From positions 64,001-128,000 of IMG/VR virus record IMGVR_UViG_3300030104_002421: a DNA stretch of 64,000 nt; one strand, written 5' to 3'. Position numbers and translations under genes: made by a program. Of this stretch, positions 4,885-64,000 are shown in pieces. The notes beneath the pieces are model-generated. The model did not search any database. It was not told the origin of the DNA and worked only from the letters and a program-made list of their open reading frames with translations. Every line of letters begins with the position of its first letter. Positions within the stretch are counted from its first letter, which is position 1. Source of the stretch: a virus.

Positions 4885-5083
4885 ATTAATATTACTACAA
4901 GCGCTTAAGTCTAGCGCTCAAGGCAACATAGATAAACATAAAGCAAATGTAGATATCTATTTACGAAATGCCATTGGCATTGGCGAGCATTCTGATATTG
5001 TGGAAACAATAGAAAAAGAACTTGACCATATTGCTAAATACGAAGACCAATTAGATATAATAGCAAAATATTTCGAAAAATAA
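4862..5083 (+). CDS. Conserved hypothetical protein
   Basis: GIGEHSDI motif; ATG at 4862 with GAGG upstream. Confidence 0.6.
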   Translation: MTPDPQNKLILLQALKSSAQGNIDKHKANVDIYLRNAIGIGEHSDIVETIEKELDHIAKYEDQLDIIAKYFEK

Positions 5084-5085
5084 GC

Positions 5086-5114
5086 TTGACTTTTCAAGTC
5101 AATTGTGATATAAT
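5086..5114 (+). promoter_or_regulatory. Sigma70-type promoter for gp43
   Basis: TTGACT-N17-TATAAT with TG extension. Confidence 0.75.
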
Positions 5115-5126
5115 ATACTTTTATTA

Positions 5127-7598
5127 ATGCAAGAATTTTATACAAATGTATCGCCGTATGGTGATGAATTATTAGTCCGTGGTTTTTCAGGCGGCAAGCG
5201 TTTTGAGGATAGAGTAACATATGTCCCAAAACTATATCACCCATACAAAGGTAAAACTACCCACAAAGCATTAGATGGCACACCTCTGGTTGCTAGAACT
5301 TGTAAATCTGTTAAAGAAGCAAGAATGCTAATTAAGAGATACGAAGACCACCCTAACTTTTTATATGGCACAGATAGATGGCAATATCAATACATGGCAG
5401 ACTATTGGCCGGGTCAAGTTGAATATGATAAAGACAAGTTAAGAATTTATACAATTGATATTGAAGTTGAAAGTGAACAAGGATTTCCTAATCCTGATGA
5501 CGCTGAAGAAAAGATGATTTGTATAACTATTAAAGATAGTGTTACAAAAAAATTCTTGGTTTGGGGTATTGCTGATTATACAGTTAAACAAGATAATGTT
5601 TCTTATATCAAATGTGATAATGAAAGAGACTTACTTAAAAAGTTTTTAGATTTCTGGCGTCAATATACACCAGATGTTGTTACAGGTTGGAACAGTAAAT
5701 ACTTTGATGTACCTTATTTAATTAATCGTATTGAGAAAGTATTAGGTTCTGCTGCCATAAAAAGAATGTCGCCATGGGGTCTAGTAGATAGAGATACTGC
5801 TTATCACAATGGTAGACAAGTAACATTTTTCAGATTACTAGGTATTGCACAATTAGACTATTTGCAATTGTATGCCAAATTTACAATTAAGAACCAAGAA
5901 CGATATACACTTGACCATATTGCTTTTGTTGAGTTAGGTGAACAAAAAGATAAAAACCCATATGATACTTTCAAAGAATGGTATCAACAAGACATACAAT
6001 CTTTTATTGATTACAATATTATTGATGTTGAGTTAGTTGATAAACTAGAAGATAGATTACAATTGATTGAACTTGCATTAACTATGGCATACAATGCCAA
6101 AGCAAATTATGAAGATGTATTTTCGCAAGTTAGAATGTGGGATACAATTATCTTTAATGAATTGTTAAAAGACAATATTGTTGTACCAATGAGAAAGATT
6201 GGTAGTATTCAAGCAAAAGAACTTGTTGGTGCATATGTTAAAGAACCTAAAACAGGTTTCCATGAATGGGTTGTATCTTTTGATTTAAACAGTTTGTATC
6301 CACACCTTATTATGCAATACAATATTTCGCCAGAAACTATTTTAGAAGGTCAAAAAGATATTAAGATTTCTGACTTGATAAACAAGACGGTTGATACCTC
6401 TGATGGTAATTGTGTTGCTGCTAATGGCACAATGTATAGAAATGATAAACAAGGTATGTTGCCACGAATTATACAAAAAGAATATAATGCTCGTACAATA
6501 TTTAAAAAGAAAATGTTAGAAGCAGAGCAAATGTATGCTAACACAAAAGATAAGAAGTATGAAAAACTTGCAAGAAAATATTATATTGTTCAGCATTCTA
6601 AAAAGATTTCATTGAATAGTGCTTATGGTGCAATTGGTAACAAATACTTTAGATATTATGACCATAGACAGGCAGAAGCAATTACAATGTCAGGTCAATT
6701 AAATATTAAATGGATTGAGAAGAAACTAAACGAATACTTTAACAAGTTGTATAAAACTGATGATGATTATATTATTGCTAGTGATACAGATTCCGTGTAT
6801 ATTAATATGGCGCCATTAGTTAAGATGACAGGCGCTACAGATAAGAATAAGATTGTTAAAGCATTAGATAGTTTTTGTAGAGATAAAGTTGAACCATACA
6901 TTGCTAAAGTATATAAAGAACTTGCAGATTATATGAATGTCTATGAACAAAAAATGGAAATGGCAAGAGAAGTTATTGCTGATAGAGGTATCTGGACTGC
7001 CAAGAAAAGATATATTTTAAATGTACACAATTCTGAAGGTGTACAATATCCAGAACCTAAACTAAAGATTATGGGTATTGAAGCAGTTAAGACCTCAACG
7101 CCACTACCTTGTAGAGATAAACTCAAAGAGAGTTTTAAAATATTAATGAATGGTGATGAAAAAGAAATGAAAGAGTTTTGTGTAAACTTTAGACGAGAGT
7201 TTGAATTGTTACCACCTGAAGATATTGGTTTCCCTCGTAGTGTAAACAATGTAGAAAAATATAGTGATACAACATCTATCTACAAAAAAGGCACACCAAT
7301 GCATGTCAAAGGTGCATTACTATATAATCATCTATTGAAAACAAAAAAAGTATCACATAAACATCAAGCAATTTACGAAGGCGATAAAGGTAAGTTTGTG
7401 CATTTGAGAAAGAATCCTTGGAATGCCAATGTAATAACTTTCATTGGTAGTTTACCAAAAGAATTTGATATGCATAAACTTATTGATTATGAACAACAAT
7501 TTACTAAATCATTTATGGATCCACTACGATTTATACTCGAAGCAATAAACTGGAAAGTGGATGCAAGTGATAGTAATACAATTGAGGATTTCTTTTGA
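5127..7598 (+). CDS. gp43: Family B DNA polymerase gp43
   Basis: Exo DIEV, SFDLNSLYP, KISLNSAYG, SDTDS, C-terminal clamp-binding IEDFF; no intein. Confidence 0.98.
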   Translation: MQEFYTNVSPYGDELLVRGFSGGKRFEDRVTYVPKLYHPYKGKTTHKALDGTPLVARTCKSVKEARMLIKRYEDHPNFLYGTDRWQYQYMADYWPGQVEYDKDKLRIYTIDIEVESEQGFPNPDDAEEKMICITIKDSVTKKFLVWGIADYTVKQDNVSYIKCDNERDLLKKFLDFWRQYTPDVVTGWNSKYFDVPYLINRIEKVLGSAAIKRMSPWGLVDRDTAYHNGRQVTFFRLLGIAQLDYLQLYAKFTIKNQERYTLDHIAFVELGEQKDKNPYDTFKEWYQQDIQSFIDYNIIDVELVDKLEDRLQLIELALTMAYNAKANYEDVFSQVRMWDTIIFNELLKDNIVVPMRKIGSIQAKELVGAYVKEPKTGFHEWVVSFDLNSLYPHLIMQYNISPETILEGQKDIKISDLINKTVDTSDGNCVAANGTMYRNDKQGMLPRIIQKEYNARTIFKKKMLEAEQMYANTKDKKYEKLARKYYIVQHSKKISLNSAYGAIGNKYFRYYDHRQAEAITMSGQLNIKWIEKKLNEYFNKLYKTDDDYIIASDTDSVYINMAPLVKMTGATDKNKIVKALDSFCRDKVEPYIAKVYKELADYMNVYEQKMEMAREVIADRGIWTAKKRYILNVHNSEGVQYPEPKLKIMGIEAVKTSTPLPCRDKLKESFKILMNGDEKEMKEFCVNFRREFELLPPEDIGFPRSVNNVEKYSDTTSIYKKGTPMHVKGALLYNHLLKTKKVSHKHQAIYEGDKGKFVHLRKNPWNANVITFIGSLPKEFDMHKLIDYEQQFTKSFMDPLRFILEAINWKVDASDSNTIEDFF

Positions 7599-43763: not shown

Positions 43764-44126
43764 ATGGCATTAATTTATACACATAACAGTTCACCAAGAC
43801 GCTTCAAGCGTGTTGTAAAGAACAAGAAATATTATGAAGCGCTTGCTGAGAGAGACAAGTTATTGAGACGATTAGGTATTGACCCCAACAGAAAGATACC
43901 AAAATACAGACCAGAGAAAATGAAAATACATACTGCCCCTGTGGCTCAATTGGTAGAGCAGACGATTTGTAATCGTCAGGTTGCAAGTTCAAGTCCTGCC
44001 GGGGGCACCAAACCTGTTTCTAATTGGCGATTAGAAGAAAGCAAAAAGTTTACTGTAGCACCTGCTTATAATAAAGGTGCATATCAAGTAATAACAAAAG
44101 AAAACATAAAGGATATAGGCAAATGA
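43764..44126 (+). CDS. Conserved phage protein (PAYNKG motif) containing an in-frame tRNA
   Basis: Open frame through the tRNA; C-terminal TVAPAYNKGAYQVI..DIGK; stop coupled to the next gene. Confidence 0.7.
   Translation: MALIYTHNSSPRRFKRVVKNKKYYEALAERDKLLRRLGIDPNRKIPKYRPEKMKIHTAPVAQLVEQTICNRQVASSSPAGGTKPVSNWRLEESKKFTVAPAYNKGAYQVITKENIKDIGK
43935..44010 (+). tRNA. tRNA-Thr(UGU) with encoded CCA
   Basis: Acceptor GCCCCTG/CGGGGGC, D stem GCTC/GAGC, anticodon stem GACGA/TCGTC with loop TT-TGT-AA, T loop TTCAAGT, ACCA end; 76 nt; one T-stem mismatch. Confidence 0.93.
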
Positions 44127-53414: not shown

Positions 53415-53799
53415 AGAACTATCATTGTTAGTATTTTTACTAACATTTATTATAATTGTTTCAGTATGGACAACATCAGCAGCTGCTGAAGGACCAAAGT
53501 ATGATTTATCAAAAATGAAGCAGAGACAAGTACCTGCTTATTGTGGAGATACTGGGTTTATGTTTGAAACATCATTAGAATTATTTAATGAATTACCAAT
53601 TGCAGGTGCTGAAGTTAGAACGGCAGGAATGCCAGATGCTCCAATCATAGGTATCATTACTCTAACTTATAACGAAGATAGAGGTTCAGGTACTGTAATG
53701 ATGACTATACCAGCAATAGGCGAGACATGTGTTCTAGCATATGGTATGAATTGGCAATTTTATAACGAAATTCATGTTGAAGGTAATGAGAGTAAATAG
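53401..53799 (+). CDS. Secreted hypothetical protein
   Basis: Signal peptide; CG...TCVLA.G Cys pair. Confidence 0.55.
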   Translation: MKKIKELSLLVFLLTFIIIVSVWTTSAAAEGPKYDLSKMKQRQVPAYCGDTGFMFETSLELFNELPIAGAEVRTAGMPDAPIIGIITLTYNEDRGSGTVMMTIPAIGETCVLAYGMNWQFYNEIHVEGNESK

Positions 53800-53996
53800 T
53801 ATGGACGGCGGGGCAGTACCGCCCACCTCCACCACAGACACGGGGGTGAAATAGGTTCGACAGCTATTAGAAATCGTGCTGGAGTGGATAGTCCAAAGAC
53901 TTAAAACTAAAATAAAAGCAAACTTTAATGAGTATGCATTAGCAGCGTAGGCTGTTAGGGGTTTGCCTTGTACCTTGCAACAGAAACAAGGCACCA
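53790..53996 (+). ncRNA. ssrA: Circularly permuted two-piece tmRNA, alphaproteobacterial type
   Basis: Acceptor piece GGACGGCGG-GGCAGTA-CCGCC-CACCTCCACCA ends 53834; 7-nt spacer; coding piece starts GGGGGTGAAATAGGTTCGAC at 53842; G3-U70 pair; tag ANFNEYALAA* at 53918-53950; outer ends approximate. Confidence 0.9.
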
Positions 53997-54012
53997 AACA
54001 AAGGAGATTGTT

Positions 54013-54147
54013 ATGATTGAAGTATTAGAAATTTTATTACCAGTTGGTATCATAGTTGCATGTGCTTATGGCATTGGGTATCTATCTGGAAGTGAGGCAA
54101 CAAGAGAAATTTATAACCCAACATTGAGAAAGAATGATTTAAAATGA
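54013..54147 (+). CDS. 44-aa membrane peptide (not in ORF track)
   Basis: RBS AAGGAG; one TM segment; ATGA coupling. Confidence 0.55.
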   Translation: MIEVLEILLPVGIIVACAYGIGYLSGSEATREIYNPTLRKNDLK

Positions 54148-55364: not shown

Positions 55365-55882
55365 GAATACCATTTACATTAAAAGAGAGAGATTATATAA
55401 TGAGTGAGGACTTTCCTTGGTATCTAGGAATACACACAAGCGACCCTAAGCATACAACAACAATACAATTACCAAACACTAAAGAAGTGCCTATGCTAAC
55501 ACACCAAATATATAATCGTGGTAAAGAGCATAGCAATTTGGCGCCAAGTATATTAGAACAAATCAAAGAAGTAACAAACTACAAAAAAATTTTAAGAGTA
55601 AAATTTAACTTACTCTTACAACAAGAACGAAAAACAATTCATCCGCCACATGTAGATTGGGATATACCACATAAAGTATTTCTACACTATATTTGTGGTG
55701 ATGGTTGCACAATATTATATAAACAAAAGTGGCAAGGTTTTCCAACAACAGATTTAACAAAAGACATGGAGATACACCCTATAGAAAATACTGGTGTCTT
55801 CTTTGATGGTGAGACTTTTCATACAAGTACAAGTCCAGTAAAAGAACCAAGACGAATAGTAATGAATGTAGATTATGAATAA
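55361..55882 (+). CDS. 2OG-Fe(II) oxygenase-like protein
   Basis: FPWY, RVKFNL, PHVD, FDG..FH, R. Confidence 0.75.
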   Translation: MRIPFTLKERDYIMSEDFPWYLGIHTSDPKHTTTIQLPNTKEVPMLTHQIYNRGKEHSNLAPSILEQIKEVTNYKKILRVKFNLLLQQERKTIHPPHVDWDIPHKVFLHYICGDGCTILYKQKWQGFPTTDLTKDMEIHPIENTGVFFDGETFHTSTSPVKEPRRIVMNVDYE

Positions 55883-56444
55883 CCATCATGTTTTTGGTAA
55901 TGGCACAAGCAGATTATCTATTGACATTGATAAACTTGAAGGTACGAAATATGGTTGCAATGCAATTTATAGAGATTATTATACAGACTATCTTATTGGT
56001 AAAGATAAAAATATATGTTCAGAAATATTGGCGTCAGAATGTTGGCAAGACAGAAAAGTTGTAATGCAAACACAATGGCGTAATGACAGTTTAGTACGAG
56101 AGGCATATGAACATATTACATGGTGGAAAGATATAGTGGGTACAAATGATTATACAGATTGTGGTAGTGTTGCATTGACAATCGCTTCACAAAATGCAAG
56201 TGATAATAATGACAAATATATATACATGTATGGTATGGACTTTGATGACCCCAATAGCAATAAGATTAATAACATATATCACGGTACAAGAAATTATATT
56301 GGTAGAATGGGTCAACGAAAAGGTGTAACAAAAGAGTTTATGAGAGTGTTTGATATATACAAAGATTTAAGATATGTACATGTAAACACTAGAATGCCAG
56401 AACAATTGGCAGATAAGGATAATGTATTATGGCAGATGATATAA
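55875..56444 (+). CDS. GNGxSR/GCNA-motif protein (sialyltransferase/MptE-like Rossmannoid fold)
   Basis: VFGNGTSR, YGCNAIYRD, G..A, MYGMDF. Confidence 0.55.
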   Translation: MNNHHVFGNGTSRLSIDIDKLEGTKYGCNAIYRDYYTDYLIGKDKNICSEILASECWQDRKVVMQTQWRNDSLVREAYEHITWWKDIVGTNDYTDCGSVALTIASQNASDNNDKYIYMYGMDFDDPNSNKINNIYHGTRNYIGRMGQRKGVTKEFMRVFDIYKDLRYVHVNTRMPEQLADKDNVLWQMI

Positions 56445-57088
56445 GAGTTGAATTTAGTAACACGGAAGTTATTAACTTTACAGCGTGTCCTATATTTCAC
56501 ACAAGCACAGACTTTAGATTAACTGATGATGAAATGCAAATACTCACGGAAGAGACTGGTGGCACACGGTTAGGCGATGGTATATATAGAGGAAAAGCAC
56601 AAATAAGTAATAATCACAATGTATTAGACACACCCGGACTTGAAAGAGTACAACGATTTATGTTGCAGACAGGACAACACTTTGTAAAGAATACACTAGA
56701 AATAGAGAATGAGTTTTATCTAACACAAACATGGTTTACAAGAAACGATAAAGAAAGTGCTCATCATACACATACACACCCAAACAGTATTTTAGCGATG
56801 GTCTATTATCCTCAATGTGAAAGTGGTGACATGGTAGTATCAGTAGAAAAAAATAATATGTTTCCACATTTTGATTTCAATTGGAAATTATCCAAATATA
56901 ATAATTTCAATGCTAAGTCATGGTCAATACAAGTACGAACTGGTGATGTAGTAATTTTTCCAGGTTATGTTGCACACAAAACAACACCAAATGAAAGTGA
57001 TACAGTACGATATGCTTTGGGTGCTAATTTCTTTACAAGAGGCACATTTGGTACATATGAGAACACAGATTTATTGGAGTTGAAATGA
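56429..57088 (+). CDS. Putative 2OG-Fe(II) oxygenase (TIGR02466-like)
   Basis: HTHPNS, GDVVIFPG..H, RYALGAN. Confidence 0.82.
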   Translation: MADDIRVEFSNTEVINFTACPIFHTSTDFRLTDDEMQILTEETGGTRLGDGIYRGKAQISNNHNVLDTPGLERVQRFMLQTGQHFVKNTLEIENEFYLTQTWFTRNDKESAHHTHTHPNSILAMVYYPQCESGDMVVSVEKNNMFPHFDFNWKLSKYNNFNAKSWSIQVRTGDVVIFPGYVAHKTTPNESDTVRYALGANFFTRGTFGTYENTDLLELK

Positions 57089-57939
57089 GTAATTTATTTG
57101 TATTAGGTAATGGCGAAAGCAGAAAAAACATACCAGTTGATATGTTAAAGTATTCTGGTAAAGTATGGGGTTGTAATGCCATTTATAGAGAACATAAACT
57201 AGATGGTTTGATTGCAGTTGACCCTATGTTAGAACATGAAATATATCGTAGTGGTTATGCACACGAAAATTCTGTTTACTTTAGAAGTTGGGATACTATG
57301 CCTGCTGAACATTATGATATGATGATAGAGGCACAAACAAGTAACATGAAAAATCCAGAGATAAGAGAGTGGCGATATAATCCAGAAGGACATTATTTAA
57401 GTTTTGTTATACATGGTCAATCTACTGTTGATACAAATAGAGACAGTACAAGATGGAAAGGTGATGGTTTTGAAAATGTTTATGTGAGTTGGTTATATGG
57501 TAAAGATAAAATTACAATGTTAAAAGATATAATGGCAGATTATTATGGCGCTGCTTGGGAAGGTGATGTTATAGGACCAGAAGACCCAGGCTGGTCATCA
57601 GGTGCTACTGCCATGTATGTTTCTTGTAAAGTAGAGAAACCTAAAAAGTGTTATCTACTAGGCATGGACATGTATAGTACAACAGATTTTATAAATAACT
57701 TATATAAAAATTCTTACGGTTACCTAGAAAGCAAGGAAAATGCAGTAACACCACAGAATTGGGTAATCCAGATGGGGCGTGTTATGGTAAGATTTAAGGA
57801 TATAGAGTTTATTAAGGTTAATCCTAGTGGAAATAGTGAGATTTCTCAAAGAATGCCACAATGGGATAGTCTTCCAAACATTACATATATGCATATGGAA
57901 GAATTTGAAAAAAACTTTAATTTAAGGCTTGACATTTAG
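57085..57939 (+). CDS. GNGxSR/GCNA-motif protein, paralogue of 55875
   Basis: VLGNGESR, WGCNAIYRE, GWSSG.TA, YLLGMD. Confidence 0.55.
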   Translation: MSNLFVLGNGESRKNIPVDMLKYSGKVWGCNAIYREHKLDGLIAVDPMLEHEIYRSGYAHENSVYFRSWDTMPAEHYDMMIEAQTSNMKNPEIREWRYNPEGHYLSFVIHGQSTVDTNRDSTRWKGDGFENVYVSWLYGKDKITMLKDIMADYYGAAWEGDVIGPEDPGWSSGATAMYVSCKVEKPKKCYLLGMDMYSTTDFINNLYKNSYGYLESKENAVTPQNWVIQMGRVMVRFKDIEFIKVNPSGNSEISQRMPQWDSLPNITYMHMEEFEKNFNLRLDI

Positions 57940-57957
57940 CACAATTCGTGTTATAAT
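57929..57957 (+). promoter_or_regulatory. Consensus sigma70 promoter driving the candidate ncRNA and gene 32
   Basis: TTGACA-N17-TATAAT with TG extension. Confidence 0.8.
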
Positions 57958-57964
57958 GTTAATA

Positions 57965-58180
57965 ATAATAGCAAAAAGAACTAATTACTCTTTTTGAATA
58001 GTGCAAGGAAGAGGGTTTCACCAGAGGCTCGAACTTGACTTCTCAGGGGTGGTACCCAGGTCAGTTGTGGAAAACACAAAGGGCAATATCTCAAATACCA
58101 AGAGGGAGAAGGTTAAACTGATTTTAGGACTGGAATCCGGTTCAGTTTTTGTGGGTAATTCCATAGTCCCACCTATTTTC
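57965..58180 (+). ncRNA. Highly structured orphan ncRNA
   Basis: GC-elevated intergenic block with about eight stems and complementary loops (TGGTA/TACCA, TGGAAT/ATTCCA). Confidence 0.65.
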
Positions 58181-58183
58181 TAT

Positions 58184-58256
58184 TATAAATAGATGTGTAC
58201 GATTATATAGTACAAGAAAGAAGAATACAAATACAACGAATACAAGGAGATAAAAT
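58184..58256 (+). promoter_or_regulatory. Late promoter plus gene-32-type autoregulatory leader
   Basis: TATAAATA, hairpin TGTAC/GTACA, then A-rich AATACAA x3 up to the RBS AGGAG. Confidence 0.6.
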
Positions 58257-59168
58257 ATGTCATTCGCAAATCTAAAACGAAGTCGAGGTAATTTCGACAA
58301 ACTAACTAAAGAGTTAGAAAAAGTACAAACCCCCACAAACAATCAAAATTCTTCCTCAGATGATAGGTTCTGGAAACCAGAACTAGATAAATCAGGTAAT
58401 GGTTATGCTGTTATCAGATTTCTACCTGCTGTAGAAGGAGAAGAACTGCCTTGGGCAAGAGTATGGTCACATGCTTTTCAAGGACCAGGTGGTTGGTACA
58501 TTGAAAATTCTTTAACTACACTAGGTCAAAAAGATCCAGTTAGTGAAGAAAATACTAAATTATGGAATACAGGCTCAGACGCCGACAAAGAAATTGCTCG
58601 TAAGAGAAAAAGAAAGTTATCTTACTTTACAAATATTCTTGTAGTGAATGACCCTAAGCATCCTGAAAATGAAGGTAAGGTGTTTCTATACAAATTTGGT
58701 AAGAAAATTTTTGATAAACTTACTGAAGCAATGAAACCTGAATTTGAAGATGAAAAGGCAATCAACCCATTTGACTTTTGGGAAGGTGCTAACTTCAAAT
58801 TAAAAATTAGAAAAGTTGATGGTTACTGGAACTATGACAAATCTGAATTTGAAACTACATCTAAATTGAAAGAGGCAGATGAAGAAATAGAAGCGATTTG
58901 GAAAATGCAGAAACCATTAGTAGAATTTTCAGCACCAAGTAATTTCAAATCTTATGATGATTTAAAAGCGAAATTTGAAAAAACTGTATATGGTACTGGA
59001 AAATCTGAAACAGCAGACCAAATTGATATCCCACCTGTAAGTGCTGCTGTTGAAGAGGTAAGTGAACAAGTAAAAGAAACTGTAGCGTCAGCGCCAATTG
59101 ATACTCCCCCTAGTAATGATGACGAAGACGATACTATGAATTACTTTAGCAAATTAGTTAACGATTAA
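58257..59168 (+). CDS. gp32: Single-stranded DNA-binding protein gp32
   Basis: DDRFWKP..DK.GNGYAVIRFLP, WYIENSLTT, FDFWEGANFKLK, acidic tail. Confidence 0.97.
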   Translation: MSFANLKRSRGNFDKLTKELEKVQTPTNNQNSSSDDRFWKPELDKSGNGYAVIRFLPAVEGEELPWARVWSHAFQGPGGWYIENSLTTLGQKDPVSEENTKLWNTGSDADKEIARKRKRKLSYFTNILVVNDPKHPENEGKVFLYKFGKKIFDKLTEAMKPEFEDEKAINPFDFWEGANFKLKIRKVDGYWNYDKSEFETTSKLKEADEEIEAIWKMQKPLVEFSAPSNFKSYDDLKAKFEKTVYGTGKSETADQIDIPPVSAAVEEVSEQVKETVASAPIDTPPSNDDEDDTMNYFSKLVND

Positions 59169-59237: not shown

Positions 59238-59855
59238 ATGATAAAAGACTATATAGCACACGATTTATTTCCAACACCTGTATATCAGAATAATATTCCT
59301 GTAACTACACTTGACGAAATAAGACAGGAAGAATATAGAGAAATACTACCTGATAGAAATGGTTACTATACAAAGAATACTAGAATATTAGATAAGTACA
59401 CAGACTTAAAAAAAGTTATACAAGAACACATTGATTGCTTTGTCTTTGAACATTTACTCATAAAAAGAATATATGAGTTTCCTATATTGAACAGTTGGGT
59501 CAATAGACATATACGAAGTGATTTCTCACATAAACATTTTCATTGTCATTCATTAATAAGTGGCATATACTACCTCAAGGCACCACAAGATGGTGGCATG
59601 CCAATGTTTTGGAAACCTGATGGTTTCTCAAATCTACTAGGTACAATGTTTAACTTTGAGTTAAGTGGTGATAATGGTATCAATAAATTAGTATATAAAG
59701 TTAATGTAAAAGATGGTGATTTATTACTGTTTCCATCACATTTATATCATTCAGTAGAAGAAAGTAAAACAGACGAGGAACGATACTCTTTGGCATTTAA
59801 TGTATGGGTCAAGGGTGAGTTTGAGGCCAGCGATATAAGCGAATTATCATTATAA
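59238..59855 (+). CDS. Putative 2OG-Fe(II) oxygenase (TIGR02466-like)
   Basis: LFPTPV, WVN, H.H...ISGIYY, LFPSHLYHSV, RYSLAFN. Confidence 0.85.
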   Translation: MIKDYIAHDLFPTPVYQNNIPVTTLDEIRQEEYREILPDRNGYYTKNTRILDKYTDLKKVIQEHIDCFVFEHLLIKRIYEFPILNSWVNRHIRSDFSHKHFHCHSLISGIYYLKAPQDGGMPMFWKPDGFSNLLGTMFNFELSGDNGINKLVYKVNVKDGDLLLFPSHLYHSVEESKTDEERYSLAFNVWVKGEFEASDISELSL

Positions 59856-59868: not shown

Positions 59869-60150
59869 ATGGATTTATTTTTTACAATTTTAGTTGATTT
59901 TGGATTGCCAGTTGCAGCTGCAATGGTAATGGGGGTATTCATATACATTATTTTAAAGTATATACTATCCGGTGTTGTAGGTCAAGTACAAACAATCACT
60001 ATGTTAATCTCCGCTTTAGACAACAGAATTAAAACTATGAACCACGATATGGTAAAACTTGATATATTAATAAGTAGCGCTTTGAACTTACGACCTGACC
60101 TTGATAGAATATCCAGAGCAGATGGTAAAGAAGACGCCAGAAAAGACTAA
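59869..60150 (+). CDS. Membrane protein with coiled coil
   Basis: FGLPVAAA.MG.FIY TM segment; LDNRIKTMNHD. Confidence 0.65.
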   Translation: MDLFFTILVDFGLPVAAAMVMGVFIYIILKYILSGVVGQVQTITMLISALDNRIKTMNHDMVKLDILISSALNLRPDLDRISRADGKEDARKD

Positions 60151-60443
60151 TGGATATTGTAGAGATATTAAACCAGTATGGTTTTGCCACAGTAGCAGCA
60201 ATTGCTATGGGGTATTTCATCTATTTTATTTACAATTATATCACCGGTAATATCATAGAAAAATTAGACAAAGCACAAATCACTACCATAGCATTAATTG
60301 ATAGAATTAGAATGCTAGATAATGACTTAATAAGATTACGGTCAAAACTGAATACCGTACTAGAAATGAGGGAAAATGAACAAAGAGACGGCACAAAAAA
60401 GTCTGGAAATGCAGAAAAACTACTTGAAGGTGATGAAAAGTAA
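60150..60443 (+). CDS. Membrane protein with coiled coil, paralogue of 59869
   Basis: YGF..VAA..MGYFIY; LIDRIRMLDNDL. Confidence 0.65.
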   Translation: MDIVEILNQYGFATVAAIAMGYFIYFIYNYITGNIIEKLDKAQITTIALIDRIRMLDNDLIRLRSKLNTVLEMRENEQRDGTKKSGNAEKLLEGDEK

Positions 60444-60511
60444 CGGTATAATAGTTGGCGCAGTAATACTATTAACTTTTACTACCGTTGCAATATTAGA
60501 CTACCTCCTAT

Positions 60512-60519
60512 TATAAATA
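60512..60519 (+). promoter_or_regulatory. T4-type late promoter for the csg locus
   Basis: TATAAATA 5 nt upstream of the csgF ATG. Confidence 0.65.
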
Positions 60520-60524
60520 TAAGC

Positions 60525-61001
60525 ATGAACAAGGCACTTTTAAAAGTGCTAGGGGGCAGTCTTATATTATGTACTTTGAGTTTACCTAGTACATCAAGCG
60601 AATTAGTATATCAATTTGGCAATCCCGCATTTAGTGGTGTTGGTTACTCAAGCCATGTGTTGTCAATTGAACAATTAAATTATAATAGAGAAAAGCAGGT
60701 TACAGATGACGCTAAGTCAGCGGCAGCTGCTCAGGCACGATTAGAAAACAATACTACAATTAACAAGTTTATTAAGAATGTAGAAAGTCGTATCTATGCT
60801 AATTTGTCCAAACAGTTAGTTGATAACATGTTTGGTACTGAATGTTCTGGTACTTGTCCTACAAGTGGCACAGCAACAGTAGAAGGTTCACAAATTGCTT
60901 GGATAAAAGATACCTCTACAGAAATTATTACATTAACAATTACTGACCCTAATGGCAATGTTACTACAATGTCCGTGCCACTAGGTGACTTTAAATTTTA
61001 G
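60525..61001 (+). CDS. csgF: Curli assembly protein CsgF-like
   Basis: Signal peptide then SELVYQFGNPAFSG (CsgF N-terminal NPxFxG motif); C-terminal ITDP.G.VT...VP. Confidence 0.85.
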   Translation: MNKALLKVLGGSLILCTLSLPSTSSELVYQFGNPAFSGVGYSSHVLSIEQLNYNREKQVTDDAKSAAAAQARLENNTTINKFIKNVESRIYANLSKQLVDNMFGTECSGTCPTSGTATVEGSQIAWIKDTSTEIITLTITDPNGNVTTMSVPLGDFKF

Positions 61002-61007
61002 AAGATT

Positions 61008-61826
61008 ATGGGTATATACGAAGTTATAAAAGTGTTAGGTTTGATGTGTCTATTGACAGGTTGTGCCTCTAATAGTCAAAACATAAAAAAAGGTGCAGAA
61101 CCTTTTATTGAAGGTTCAACAACAATAGAACTATTAAGAGAGATACCTGATTTAGATAATCAACCTGTAATTACAATTGCTGTTTATGAATTTACTGACC
61201 AAACAGGACAAAGAAAACCTAACCCTAACTTTTCTCAATTGTCAACGGCAGTTACACAAGGTCCTGATGTTTGGGTGATATCTGCTTTAAAAGCAGTTAG
61301 TGAAGGTGATTGGTTTAAAGTAGTAGAAAGAAAAGGTTTAAACAACCTAATTAAAGAGAGACAATTAATTAGGTCAACAAGAGAATTATATGATGGAGAG
61401 AGTGAGGCAAAAAATCAATTGAAACCTATGTTATTTGCAGGTCTCATAATAGAGGGTGGCATAGTAGGTTATGATAGCAATGTTGTAAGTGGTGGTGTTG
61501 GTGCAAGATATTTTGGTATAGGCATGAGTGAAATGTACCGTACAGACCAAGTAACAGTTTCATTAAGAGTTGTTGCTGTTCAGACTGGAGAAATATTACT
61601 TACAGTCCATGCAACAAAGACAATCGCAAGTTATAATAAGGGCGGTGATGTATTTAGATTTTTAGATATGAGTACAAAGGCGTTAGAATTAGAAACTGGT
61701 GCAGCTACAAACGAACCAGTTAGTTATGCGATAAGAACAGCGATAGAGTATGCAGTATTACAGATGGTTTATGAAGGCGTTAACAAAGACCTTTGGAAAA
61801 TGAAAGGCGTAGAAGGAGTAAGATGA
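61008..61826 (+). CDS. csgG: Curli secretion channel CsgG
   Basis: Lipobox LTG-C; AVY.F.DQTGQRKP, STAVTQG, WF.VVER.GL.NL.KERQ.IR, GG.GARYFGIG. Confidence 0.93.
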   Translation: MGIYEVIKVLGLMCLLTGCASNSQNIKKGAEPFIEGSTTIELLREIPDLDNQPVITIAVYEFTDQTGQRKPNPNFSQLSTAVTQGPDVWVISALKAVSEGDWFKVVERKGLNNLIKERQLIRSTRELYDGESEAKNQLKPMLFAGLIIEGGIVGYDSNVVSGGVGARYFGIGMSEMYRTDQVTVSLRVVAVQTGEILLTVHATKTIASYNKGGDVFRFLDMSTKALELETGAATNEPVSYAIRTAIEYAVLQMVYEGVNKDLWKMKGVEGVR

Positions 61827-62509
61827 GAAATGTAACAAAAATAGTTATGTTTTTGATGATGTTTACATTGCCAGTAATGGCGAATGATATTTATGTAACA
61901 CAATCCGGTGCTACATTAACTTTAGATGTATTACAAGACGGACAAAACAACACAATAGGTAACAGTACCACAGCTTCAACAGTAACAGGTGCTACATCTA
62001 ACTTTAACATTGACCAAATTGGTAATTCAAATGTGTTGACATTTGATATTAATGGTGCAAATTACACAGGTGTTTTTAGTACGACTGGTAATAGTAACAA
62101 TATAGATTTCAATTGTGATAGCGGAGGAACAGTTAGTTCATGTGCCACAGTTACAGCGTCAATTATTTGGGTAGGTTCTTCAAATGATTTAGATATTGAT
62201 GTTGGTGAAACAGCAGACGCTACGGGTGCTAATATTACGATAGCAGGTGCTTCTGGTAGTGATAGTAATGTTATTGCTGGTACAGTAGATGGTACAAGTG
62301 TTATCTTTACTTTATCAGTAAATGGTGATACAAATAATTTCTTGGTCGACATAGACGGAGATGGGGATAGTGCAGGACATACCTACATACACACACATAC
62401 AGGTTCAATTGCTGATGTTGACATAACACAATCAGGTATATATGACAACATGATTACTTTAACAACAAGTGGCGACAACCACAATATTGATATTATACAA
62501 AGAGACTAA
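61823..62509 (+). CDS. Secreted curlin-repeat-like beta-solenoid protein
   Basis: Signal peptide; repeats such as IYVTQSG, LQDGQNN, IDQIGNSN, ITQSG.YDN. Confidence 0.65.
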   Translation: MRNVTKIVMFLMMFTLPVMANDIYVTQSGATLTLDVLQDGQNNTIGNSTTASTVTGATSNFNIDQIGNSNVLTFDINGANYTGVFSTTGNSNNIDFNCDSGGTVSSCATVTASIIWVGSSNDLDIDVGETADATGANITIAGASGSDSNVIAGTVDGTSVIFTLSVNGDTNNFLVDIDGDGDSAGHTYIHTHTGSIADVDITQSGIYDNMITLTTSGDNHNIDIIQRD

Positions 62510-62553
62510 TATGGATTGGATTTTAATTTTATTATATACAGGAGTGATTACAT

Positions 62554-63678
62554 ATGCGGCTTACAAATTTTATAATTGGGTGCATAGTCTTAACCCTTAC
62601 GATTTTACTCCCAAAAAGTAGTTTTGCTAATATTGGCAATGTTACTCAATTAGAGGGTAACGGTGTCATTGATAGACAAGACGGTGATGAGGGTATTGTA
62701 ATTGAAAAAGAATTAGATATATTTTCATACGATACTGTAAAGACAGGTAATGGTAAAGTTGGGATAGAGTTTATAGACAATACAAGAGTTGACATCACCC
62801 AACATTCAAAACTTATCATAGATGAGTTTGTTTATGACCCAAACAGTAAGACCGGTAAACTATCATTGAAAGCAAGTCTTGGCACAGTAAGATATGCCTC
62901 AGGACAAATTGCAAAAAATTCAGCAACAAATGTACAGATAACGACACCAACGGCAACGATTGGTGTTCGTGGTACAGATTTTACTATGACAATAGATGAA
63001 GTAGGTTCATCTACAATTATATTGTTACCAAGTTGCGATACAAATGGTAATTGTTTTGTAGGTGAGATAAGTGTTGAAAGCGACGCTGGTCAAGTTATAC
63101 TTAATCAGGCATTTCAAGCTACAGTAGTTGATACAGTTGCAAGTAGACCATTGACGCCTGTAATTTTAAATTTAGATGAAGATATGATTAATAACTTAAT
63201 GATTGTATCTAAACCTGCTGAAATAGAAAGTATGCAAAATGAAGAAGGACTTAATGAAGTTGCAGACGCTTTAGATATTGACTTTTTACAATTTGATGAT
63301 TTAGAAGTTGATTATTTGGCAGAGGATGAAAGTCAATTTAAAACAGGACTTGATATTGATTTTTTAGAACAAAATTTTTTGGCTGATATCTTGGCACAGA
63401 TTAACAAAGAGTTAGCAAAAGCAATGAGGTCAGAATTTGATAAACAAAAATCAGCAGATGGTATATTACTAGGTAAGAATCCTGAAACTGGTGTCATAAT
63501 ATTAGATGAAGACCCAGAGTGGGTATGGATAAGAGAAGACGCTAGTGGTAGTTATATAGAACTACGATTAGATAAAGAGTATGGATATATTTTAAATATT
63601 GTGCAAAGTGAATTTGAACAATATGATTTTCAGTTAGGAGGGCAAGACAATGCTATTACGATACAGCAAATTAATTAG
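62554..63678 (+). CDS. Secreted FecR-domain protein
   Basis: Signal peptide; D.VKTG, F.D.T, TPTATIGVRGTDF; acidic C-terminal half. Confidence 0.8.
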   Translation: MRLTNFIIGCIVLTLTILLPKSSFANIGNVTQLEGNGVIDRQDGDEGIVIEKELDIFSYDTVKTGNGKVGIEFIDNTRVDITQHSKLIIDEFVYDPNSKTGKLSLKASLGTVRYASGQIAKNSATNVQITTPTATIGVRGTDFTMTIDEVGSSTIILLPSCDTNGNCFVGEISVESDAGQVILNQAFQATVVDTVASRPLTPVILNLDEDMINNLMIVSKPAEIESMQNEEGLNEVADALDIDFLQFDDLEVDYLAEDESQFKTGLDIDFLEQNFLADILAQINKELAKAMRSEFDKQKSADGILLGKNPETGVIILDEDPEWVWIREDASGSYIELRLDKEYGYILNIVQSEFEQYDFQLGGQDNAITIQQIN

Positions 63679-64000
63679 TTTCTTATTTGTATTGTTTTGT
63701 TGCACATCAGCATTTGCTGAGACGGCACATATAAACTATACTGATACTAATATGTACAATAAGATTAAAGGTGAACTAGAAACATTAGGGTTTACAGTTA
63801 CAGGTACAAATAGTGGGTCAGTAAGTTTAAGTGATTTTACTGGTAAAGATTTACATATCAATGTTGCAGGTAATAATAACTGTGGCAGTACATGTAAGAC
63901 GGCATATGAAACTTATATAGGTGCAGGTGGTAATGTTATTATTGCAGGTAATGGTGACCGTGATGGCAATAGAACACTTAGCATTGAAAGTCTTGTAGAA
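63650..64000 (+). CDS. Secreted protein, truncated by the window end (not in ORF track)
   Basis: RBS AGGAGG; MLLRYSKLISFLFVLFCCTSAFA signal; frame open to 64000. Confidence 0.65.
   Translation, partial: MLLRYSKLISFLFVLFCCTSAFAETAHINYTDTNMYNKIKGELETLGFTVTGTNSGSVSLSDFTGKDLHINVAGNNNCGSTCKTAYETYIGAGGNVIIAGNGDRDGNRTLSIESLVE

Follow-up and report, generated by a model that had tools for sequence, protein, structure and literature searches.

The 64,000-nucleotide window (the whole stretch of DNA analyzed here) contains, between a gene of unknown function and gene 32, a structured RNA of about 210 nt preceded by an early-type promoter and followed by a late one. The features of this locus are as follows:

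57085..57939, +: upstream gene, 284 aa, PHROG 30607, function unknown; present at 56 related loci
57929..57957, +: sigma70-type (early) promoter TTGACA-N17-TATAAT, with TG before the -10; 12/12 match
57974..58182, +: RNA of ~210 nt assigned to the manA family by a full-length RF01745 match and covariation
58184-58191, +: T4-type late promoter TATAAATA, recognized by sequence, 2 nt 3′ of the RNA end
58257..59168, +: gene 32 (ssDNA-binding protein), 303 aa; PHROG 224, E 1.5e-118

The stop of the PHROG 30607 gene overlaps the -35 hexamer of the early promoter, which is the single 12/12 sigma70 site within the 64-kb window and ends 16 nt 5′ of the RNA motif, with a predicted transcription start near 57964-57965. 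The sequence leading from the RNA to the gene 32 start codon includes an A-rich stretch, and no terminator was found between the RNA and gene 32 in the window copy. The original prediction, made from the sequence alone, had listed the promoter, a succession of helices behind it and a separate late promoter for gene 32; all of these elements were recovered in place, the late promoter lying after the RNA.

The virus is an HTVC008M-like pelagimyophage (a SAR11 myophage): its gp32 shares 89.8% identity with the protein of Pelagibacter phage HTVC008M, 65% with that of Mosig and at most 60% with cyanophage gp32 proteins. The window also codes for a permuted (two-piece) tmRNA of the alphaproteobacterial type with the tag ANFNEYALAA (53739-54041, +; Rfam scores of 98.4 bits for tmRNA_permuted and 74.7 bits for alpha_tmRNA), part of which matches an unannotated stretch of HTVC008M at 84% identity, and two PHROG 18771 paralogues (93 and 97 aa) lead into a curli-like csgF/csgG cluster (59869-64000). 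Permuted tmRNAs are known for this phage group (PMC9004378) and the curli-like cluster is a known pelagimyophage feature (PMC7029224); both traits have been published for pelagimyophages and their relatives. Two pairs of paralogues flank gene 32, namely the PHROG 30607 genes at 55875-56444 (a short version) and 57085-57939, and the 2OG-Fe(II) oxygenase genes at 56429-57088 and 59238-59855. Further away, a tRNA-Thr(UGU) at 43935-44010 (+) is called by both ARAGORN and Rfam.

Family affiliation and fold of the RNA

A default Rfam scan of the window, run at gathering thresholds, recovered the permuted tmRNA and the tRNA only and reported nothing at the RNA site. In a permissive Rfam scan of 57850-58300, the manA family (RF01745) was aligned over its entire length (1-192 of 192) with 53.0 bits and an E-value of 7.1e-13, a match that is unique in the 146-kb virus genome. 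The default scan misses the window copy because its score is 2.2 bits under the gathering threshold of 55.2 bits, which is a curator's line and not a structural feature. Relatives of the same subtype score above this cut-off, with 64 bits for the copy in Mosig and 57.8 bits for those in two IMG/VR contigs. The conserved boxes of the family (the GGUGGU-like L5, the ACCA of L7 and UGUGGGUA...UCCCACC of P9) were aligned by cmscan with high posterior probability, and are also present in the construct sequences in Table S3 of a recent structural preprint on manA RNAs (bioRxiv 10.64898/2026.07.01.735769). We consider it highly probable that the block represents a manA-family RNA of an HTVC008M-like pelagimyophage; its identity, its fold and its kissing-loop complementarity are all well supported.

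This bears on two statements of the original prediction, which had ventured a loose resemblance to the manA motif and had at the same time presented the RNA as an orphan. The resemblance proved correct. A new class unrelated to described families could appeal to the silence of the default scan at the site; it is refuted by the full-length manA alignment (E 7e-13), by homologues that form a graded series with scores of up to 57.8 to 64 bits, by the covariation of those homologues and by loop motifs common to experimentally studied manA RNAs, and we accord it scarcely any probability.

The window RNA and RF01745 have the same helix order and junctions, and share the GUGGU-type L5, the ACCA of L7, a GNRA-like L6, the P9 box UGUGGGUA...CCCACC and the closing helix P2, as well as a location 5′ of genes in marine phages (Weinberg et al. 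2010, PMC2864571). The window copy is distinguished by the internal loop of P3 (GGAAGA/GAAC, as against the RF01745 consensus CUGAAUAA/UAAGG), by its residence in a SAR11 myophage and not in a cyanophage, by its fixed slot before gene 32 and by its score just below the cut-off. All nine helices of the manA architecture (the P1 hairpin, the closing P2, P3, the four-way junction P4-P7, P8 and P9) form in the window:

57974-79/57989-94 (feature 57974..57994), +: P1 hairpin CAAAAAGA/TCTTTTTG; double changes at 5/6 pairs
57997-58001/58173-58177, +: P2, AATAG/CTATT, closing the whole fold; double changes at 3/5 pairs; these are the [[[[[ ]]]]] pairs of the Rfam consensus
58004..58037, +: P3, made of the outer P3a (CAAG/CUUG) and the 7-bp P3b (58013-58019/58024-58030), with loop L3 ACCA
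58039..58111, +: four-way junction P4-P7; covariation; layout named alike in the preprint supplement
58039-44/58106-11, +: P4, CTTCTC/GAGAAG; double changes at 6/6 pairs, 100% paired
58046-48/58055-57, +: P5, GGG/CCC, inside P4, with loop L5 GUGGUA; covariation
58060-62/58082-84 and 58065-69/58075-79, +: P6, including TTGTG/CACAA, with loop L6 GAAAA; covariation
58089-92/58102-05, +: P7 (CTC/GAG), with loop L7 AAAUACCAA; covariation
58115-21/58142-48 and 58127-29/58136-38 (58115..58148), +: P8, including AAACTGA/TCAGTTT, with loop L8 CUGGAAU; covariation, with double changes at 7/7 pairs of the outer P8a
58151-55/58168-72 (58151..58172), +: P9, GTGGG/CCCAC, with loop L9 UAAUUCCAUAGU; covariation

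P1 can be extended to C57972-G57996. The helix naming agrees with that of the preprint supplement (P3a/b, the P4-P7 four-way junction, P8a/b). P3 had previously been read as a symmetric stem (CAAG-gaa-GAG/CTC-gaa-CTTG); covariation supports, in place of this, CAAG/CTTG together with the inner 7-bp stem and the loop ACCA. The minimum free energy of the fold is -58.4 kcal/mol (z = -1.65 on the + strand and -0.93 on the - strand), and 14/200 shuffles fold equally well, such that by thermodynamics alone the block is not above chance. Hence, it is on account of homology and covariation, and not of folding energy, that we judge it to be structured beyond chance.

Compensatory change in helices and loops

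A covariance model built from six copies, using the window-mapped helices, found 86 matches, 70 of them distinct, after further copies had been gathered from IMG/VR with a motif pattern. (An initial genome filter missed copies ~95% identical to the window, and its zeros were not taken as absences.) In the alignment of the 70 distinct homologues, which was fitted to its own model and whose pair counts accordingly lean towards that structure, standard pairs make up 91.6% of cells as against 73.6% in column shuffles, 47/68 pairs change on both sides (36.4 in shuffles) and the covariation score is 0.456 (0.157 in shuffles). Sliding the partners by 1-3 columns reduces pairing from 91.6% to 40-55%. 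Compensatory changes are seen in all helices but P3a, which was fixed by the collecting pattern along with L3; the invariance of both in this alignment carries no meaning, and a pairing of L3 (ACCA) with L5 or L8 is not judgeable from it. In the HTVC008M-type class described below, which was collected independently, P3a does covary. Judged by these substitution patterns, the structure of the RNA is kept by compensatory change and is under selection. The earlier view that the early-type promoter is followed by a discrete and highly structured RNA that does not code for protein is supported.

That the region codes instead for a small protein, as a GTG-initiated ORF in the window (58001-58192, 63 aa) and a CDS annotated across the equivalent region of HTVC008M might suggest, has practically no probability: the 62 homologues share no conserved reading frame, a frame of at least 60 aa being open in only 21 of them and inconsistently placed, for which reason the 63-aa ORF is not considered a gene, and the substitutions in the stems are compensatory rather than synonymous. 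The HTVC008M CDS in question (AGE60342, a 56-aa hypothetical protein; KC465899 4993-5163, equivalent to 1994-2164 of contig L185) overlaps the manA-like RNA at 5037-5223 and is probably a mis-call.

The original prediction had further pointed to two complementary loop pairs, which in terms of the manA fold are:

58050-58054 with 58096-58100, +: L5-L7 kissing pair UGGUA/UACCA; 5 Watson-Crick pairs
58131-36 with 58158-63, +: L8-L9 pair UGGAAU/AUUCCA; 6 Watson-Crick pairs

Column-wise counts for these loops (65.7% and 71.2% paired) are blurred by register shifts, and a register-free permutation script was used in their stead, covering 21 loop pairs, 62 sequences and 300 permutations. Both pairings emerge as real and co-varying: within-molecule complementarity is 4.06 for L5-L7 as against 3.19 +/- 0.115 and 4.09 for L8-L9 as against 3.62 +/- 0.074, with 0/300 permutations as high in either case. 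L6-L7 also lies above all 300 permutations, marginally (1.93 vs 1.76), and among the 21 loop pairs none besides L5-L7 and L8-L9 does so with more than a marginal excess. Compensatory variants include UUGU/ACAG, UUGC/GCA and UAGU/ACUA for L5-L7, and GGUA/UACC, AUGG/CCAU and UGGU/ACCA for L8-L9.

Cryo-EM of five manA RNAs has revealed pentamer-based octamers and decamers and a 60-subunit T=1 cage, in which the subunits are joined through intermolecular kissing loops (L5-L7′ and L8-L9′, the latter seen in manA_A0F1); the Photobacterium variants use L5-L7′, L3-L8′ and a GNRA contact instead (bioRxiv 10.64898/2026.07.01.735769). According to this preprint, the oligomerization takes place in vitro at 10 mM Mg2+. 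Like the window RNA, manA_A0F1 and manA_67AA possess the P4-P5-P6-P7 junction and helices P8 and P9, and each loop of the window RNA has its positional counterpart in manA_A0F1. The L5-L7 pair is UGGU/ACCA in these two RNAs and UGGUA/UACCA in the window, and the L8-L9 pair is CUGU/ACAG and UGGAAU/AUUCCA, respectively; the letters of the latter differ but are compensated. By this comparison, the two predicted pairings correspond to the known quaternary interfaces of the manA family. Covariation does not separate intermolecular from intramolecular pairing, and assembly into pentamers, decamers or 60-mers pertains to the published RNAs in vitro. By analogy with the cryo-EM structures of other manA RNAs, both loop pairs would be intermolecular contacts, linking copies of the RNA into closed oligomers built on pentamers. 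That natural variation preserves both kissing interfaces argues for their importance in vivo. The compact tertiary fold originally envisaged, be it a ribozyme, riboswitch or sponge, did not gain comparable backing: no expression platform was found, and the published loop pairings are intermolecular.

Gene neighborhoods of related copies

The order promoter, manA-class RNA, late promoter TATAAATA and gene 32 is conserved across the HTVC008M-like lineage. In all related contigs with enough flank, 300-350 nt separate the PHROG 30607 gene from gene 32, and this gap holds a near-consensus sigma70 promoter and an RNA of 205-220 nt, of either the window subtype or a diverged HTVC008M subtype. More generally, among the 84 copies that include an upstream flank, ~70 have a promoter matching at 10-12/12 positions whose end lies 12-18 nt 5′ of the RNA. 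In the cyanophages P-SSM3, S-CREM1 and S-M1 the arrangement is absent, with only 30-70 nt before gene 32; two of these three have a manA copy at another genomic location, and S-M1 yielded none.

The 66 distinct full-length copies of the window subtype were sorted by the feature downstream of the RNA:

31/66 copies: late promoter TATAAATA and gp32, no terminator; these are all of the copies with a readable ORF followed by a gp32-sized ORF
22/66 copies: canonical terminator (A-tract, GC stem with a UUCG-type loop, T-tract), 6-26 nt after the RNA
5/66 copies: ORF within 30 nt (rubrerythrin, peroxiredoxin)
8/66 copies: other

Genes found downstream of other copies code for a radical SAM/SPASM protein, a cytidylyltransferase/mannose-6-P isomerase and small unknown ORFs; the cytidylyltransferase/mannose-6-P isomerase gene that follows one sibling copy is the namesake context of the manA family. 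Promoter-manA-terminator cassettes occur at L141 5361-5567, L067 11660-11866 and ~20 other loci. In these two contigs, whose flanking content was checked, the capsid or UvsX gene is jumbo-phage-like (121Q-like, PA5oct-like) and not T4-like, which suggests that marine phages of unrelated lineages exchange the RNA cassette.

Two cultivated SAR11 phages offer direct points of comparison. The copy in Mosig EXVC030M (MT647606, 108164-108371) belongs to the window subtype (191 bits with our own model, 64 bits with Rfam) and has the same upstream gene family and promoter as the window; it differs in that a rubrerythrin gene, 16 nt after the RNA, stands between the RNA and gene 32, with no late promoter there. 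The element of HTVC008M (KC465899, 5037-5223) occupies the same gene 32 slot as in the window, with a promoter, a 205-220-nt RNA and then gene 32; it keeps P1, P2, P3, P9 and a co-varying L8-L9 complement, and its middle part has diverged. The HTVC008M subtype reaches only 23-35 bits with Rfam and is undetected by our covariance model, which is too narrow for this class; it was handled with Rfam and RNAalifold. A separate alignment of this class holds 23 distinct sequences located ~35-250 nt after the PHROG 30607 gene, with near-consensus sigma70 promoters (TTGACT-N17-TATAAT in 22, TTGACA in the remaining one, L051) and clear L8-L9 covariation (CUGG/CCAG, GUUGGA/UCCAAC, AUGGA/UCCAU, AUUGG/CCAAU).

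Expression and proposed functions

Taken together with the predicted start, the promoter suggests that host RNA polymerase would transcribe the RNA early in infection, from near 57965. A 240-nt metatranscriptome contig that starts at 57965 and covers 57965-58183 with two differences gives a weak hint in the same direction. Marine metatranscriptome assemblies do contain the element; all four runs consist of contigs, not reads, and do not convey true ends, strands or levels, and in the one contig that includes the promoter this coverage leaves room for DNA carry-over or read-through. Parts left uncovered in the contig mapping carry no meaning. In one run the summed contig depth over P2-P3 (57972-58039) is up to 684, as against 383 over the conserved part of gene 32, depths that pool many relatives and are not an expression measure. 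P1 was also considered as a generic stem-loop of early transcripts, an idea rejected as similar hairpins are absent after other strong promoters of the window. Since no terminator separates the RNA from gene 32, the early transcript should carry both and most likely continues into gene 32. Late gene 32 messages, in turn, would begin 3′ of the RNA and lack it, because the late promoter lies downstream of it; of the gene 32 messages, only the early one would thus have the RNA as its 5′ part. The free-standing RNA of the original prediction fits the one third of related copies that are closed by a terminator of their own, constitutive-looking in appearance; the window copy has no such terminator, and there the RNA may be a simple 5′ leader.

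On balance, we lean towards the RNA being an autonomous, promoter-proximal and self-associating structural module and not a metabolite-sensing switch for gene 32, because the neighboring genes are unrelated, the terminators are standalone and an expression platform was not found. The many promoter-RNA-terminator units in particular favor an autonomous RNA over a cis-acting switch.

The foremost alternative is the original proposal for manA, a ligand-sensing riboswitch, which would here control early gene 32 expression in cis. In five related copies an ORF begins 5-26 nt downstream of the RNA, as is typical of translational riboswitches, and in the Mosig-type copies the next ORF comes 16-26 nt after the RNA. 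In the window the early transcript should carry both the RNA and gene 32, with no terminator in between, and Weinberg et al. 2010 (PMC2864571) classed manA, located in 5′ UTRs, as a probable riboswitch. Against these points, no expression platform competing with the aptamer, whether a terminator/antiterminator or a sequestered SD, was found in the window or in the sibling terminators, and there is no alternative pairing that overlaps the aptamer. An antiterminator was rejected on the complementarity between terminator arms and RNA body, which is not above shuffles (24 flanks; 22 distinct terminator-bearing copies). Moreover, the downstream genes are functionally unrelated, a late promoter separates the RNA from gene 32, and no manA ligand is reported in the literature searched, from 2010 to 2026. 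We accordingly regard a riboswitch as unlikely.

Far less likely still is a translational operator for autorepression by gp32. In T4, a 5′ pseudoknot on the gene 32 mRNA nucleates the binding of gp32, which represses its own mRNA. The position of the RNA directly 5′ of gene 32 throughout the HTVC008M-like lineage, with the A-rich stretch between it and the start codon, is reminiscent of this arrangement. However, the T4 operator sits on the regulated mRNA and is specific to gene 32, which does not hold for the window RNA: the late promoter keeps it off the late gene 32 mRNA, the same subtype is found before unrelated genes or its own terminator in other phages, and the cyanophage relatives have gp32 without the RNA.

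The preferred reading of an autonomous, self-associating RNA module may be carried one step further, to the rather speculative proposal, which we consider possible yet improbable, that pelagimyophages use their strongest early promoter to produce a self-assembling RNA ring or cage in infected SAR11 cells. The manA family itself is already known, as a riboswitch candidate since 2010 (PMC2864571) and latterly as the source of RNA-only cages in vitro (bioRxiv 10.64898/2026.07.01.735769). What is added here is its gene 32 slot in SAR11 myophages, the covariation of its assembly interfaces and its terminator-bearing cassettes. An earlier pelagimyophage survey with Riboswitch Scanner reported no riboswitches (PMC7029224) and a survey of Mosig and Melnitz with the same tool only glutamine riboswitches (PMC9004378), manA being unmentioned in both; Riboswitch Scanner does not screen for manA.

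The family is thus present in cultivable SAR11 phages, above the Rfam cut-off in Mosig and as a divergent copy in HTVC008M, and its function becomes testable in a growable phage-host pair. Pelagimyophages are among the most abundant myophages of the ocean. If the cage proposal were true, manA would be a mobile promoter-RNA(-terminator) cassette common to T4-like and jumbo-like marine phages and would serve as an RNA-only compartment or decoy, not as a riboswitch, and the covariation of its kissing loops would be the trace left in vivo by assemblies that have as yet been observed in vitro alone.
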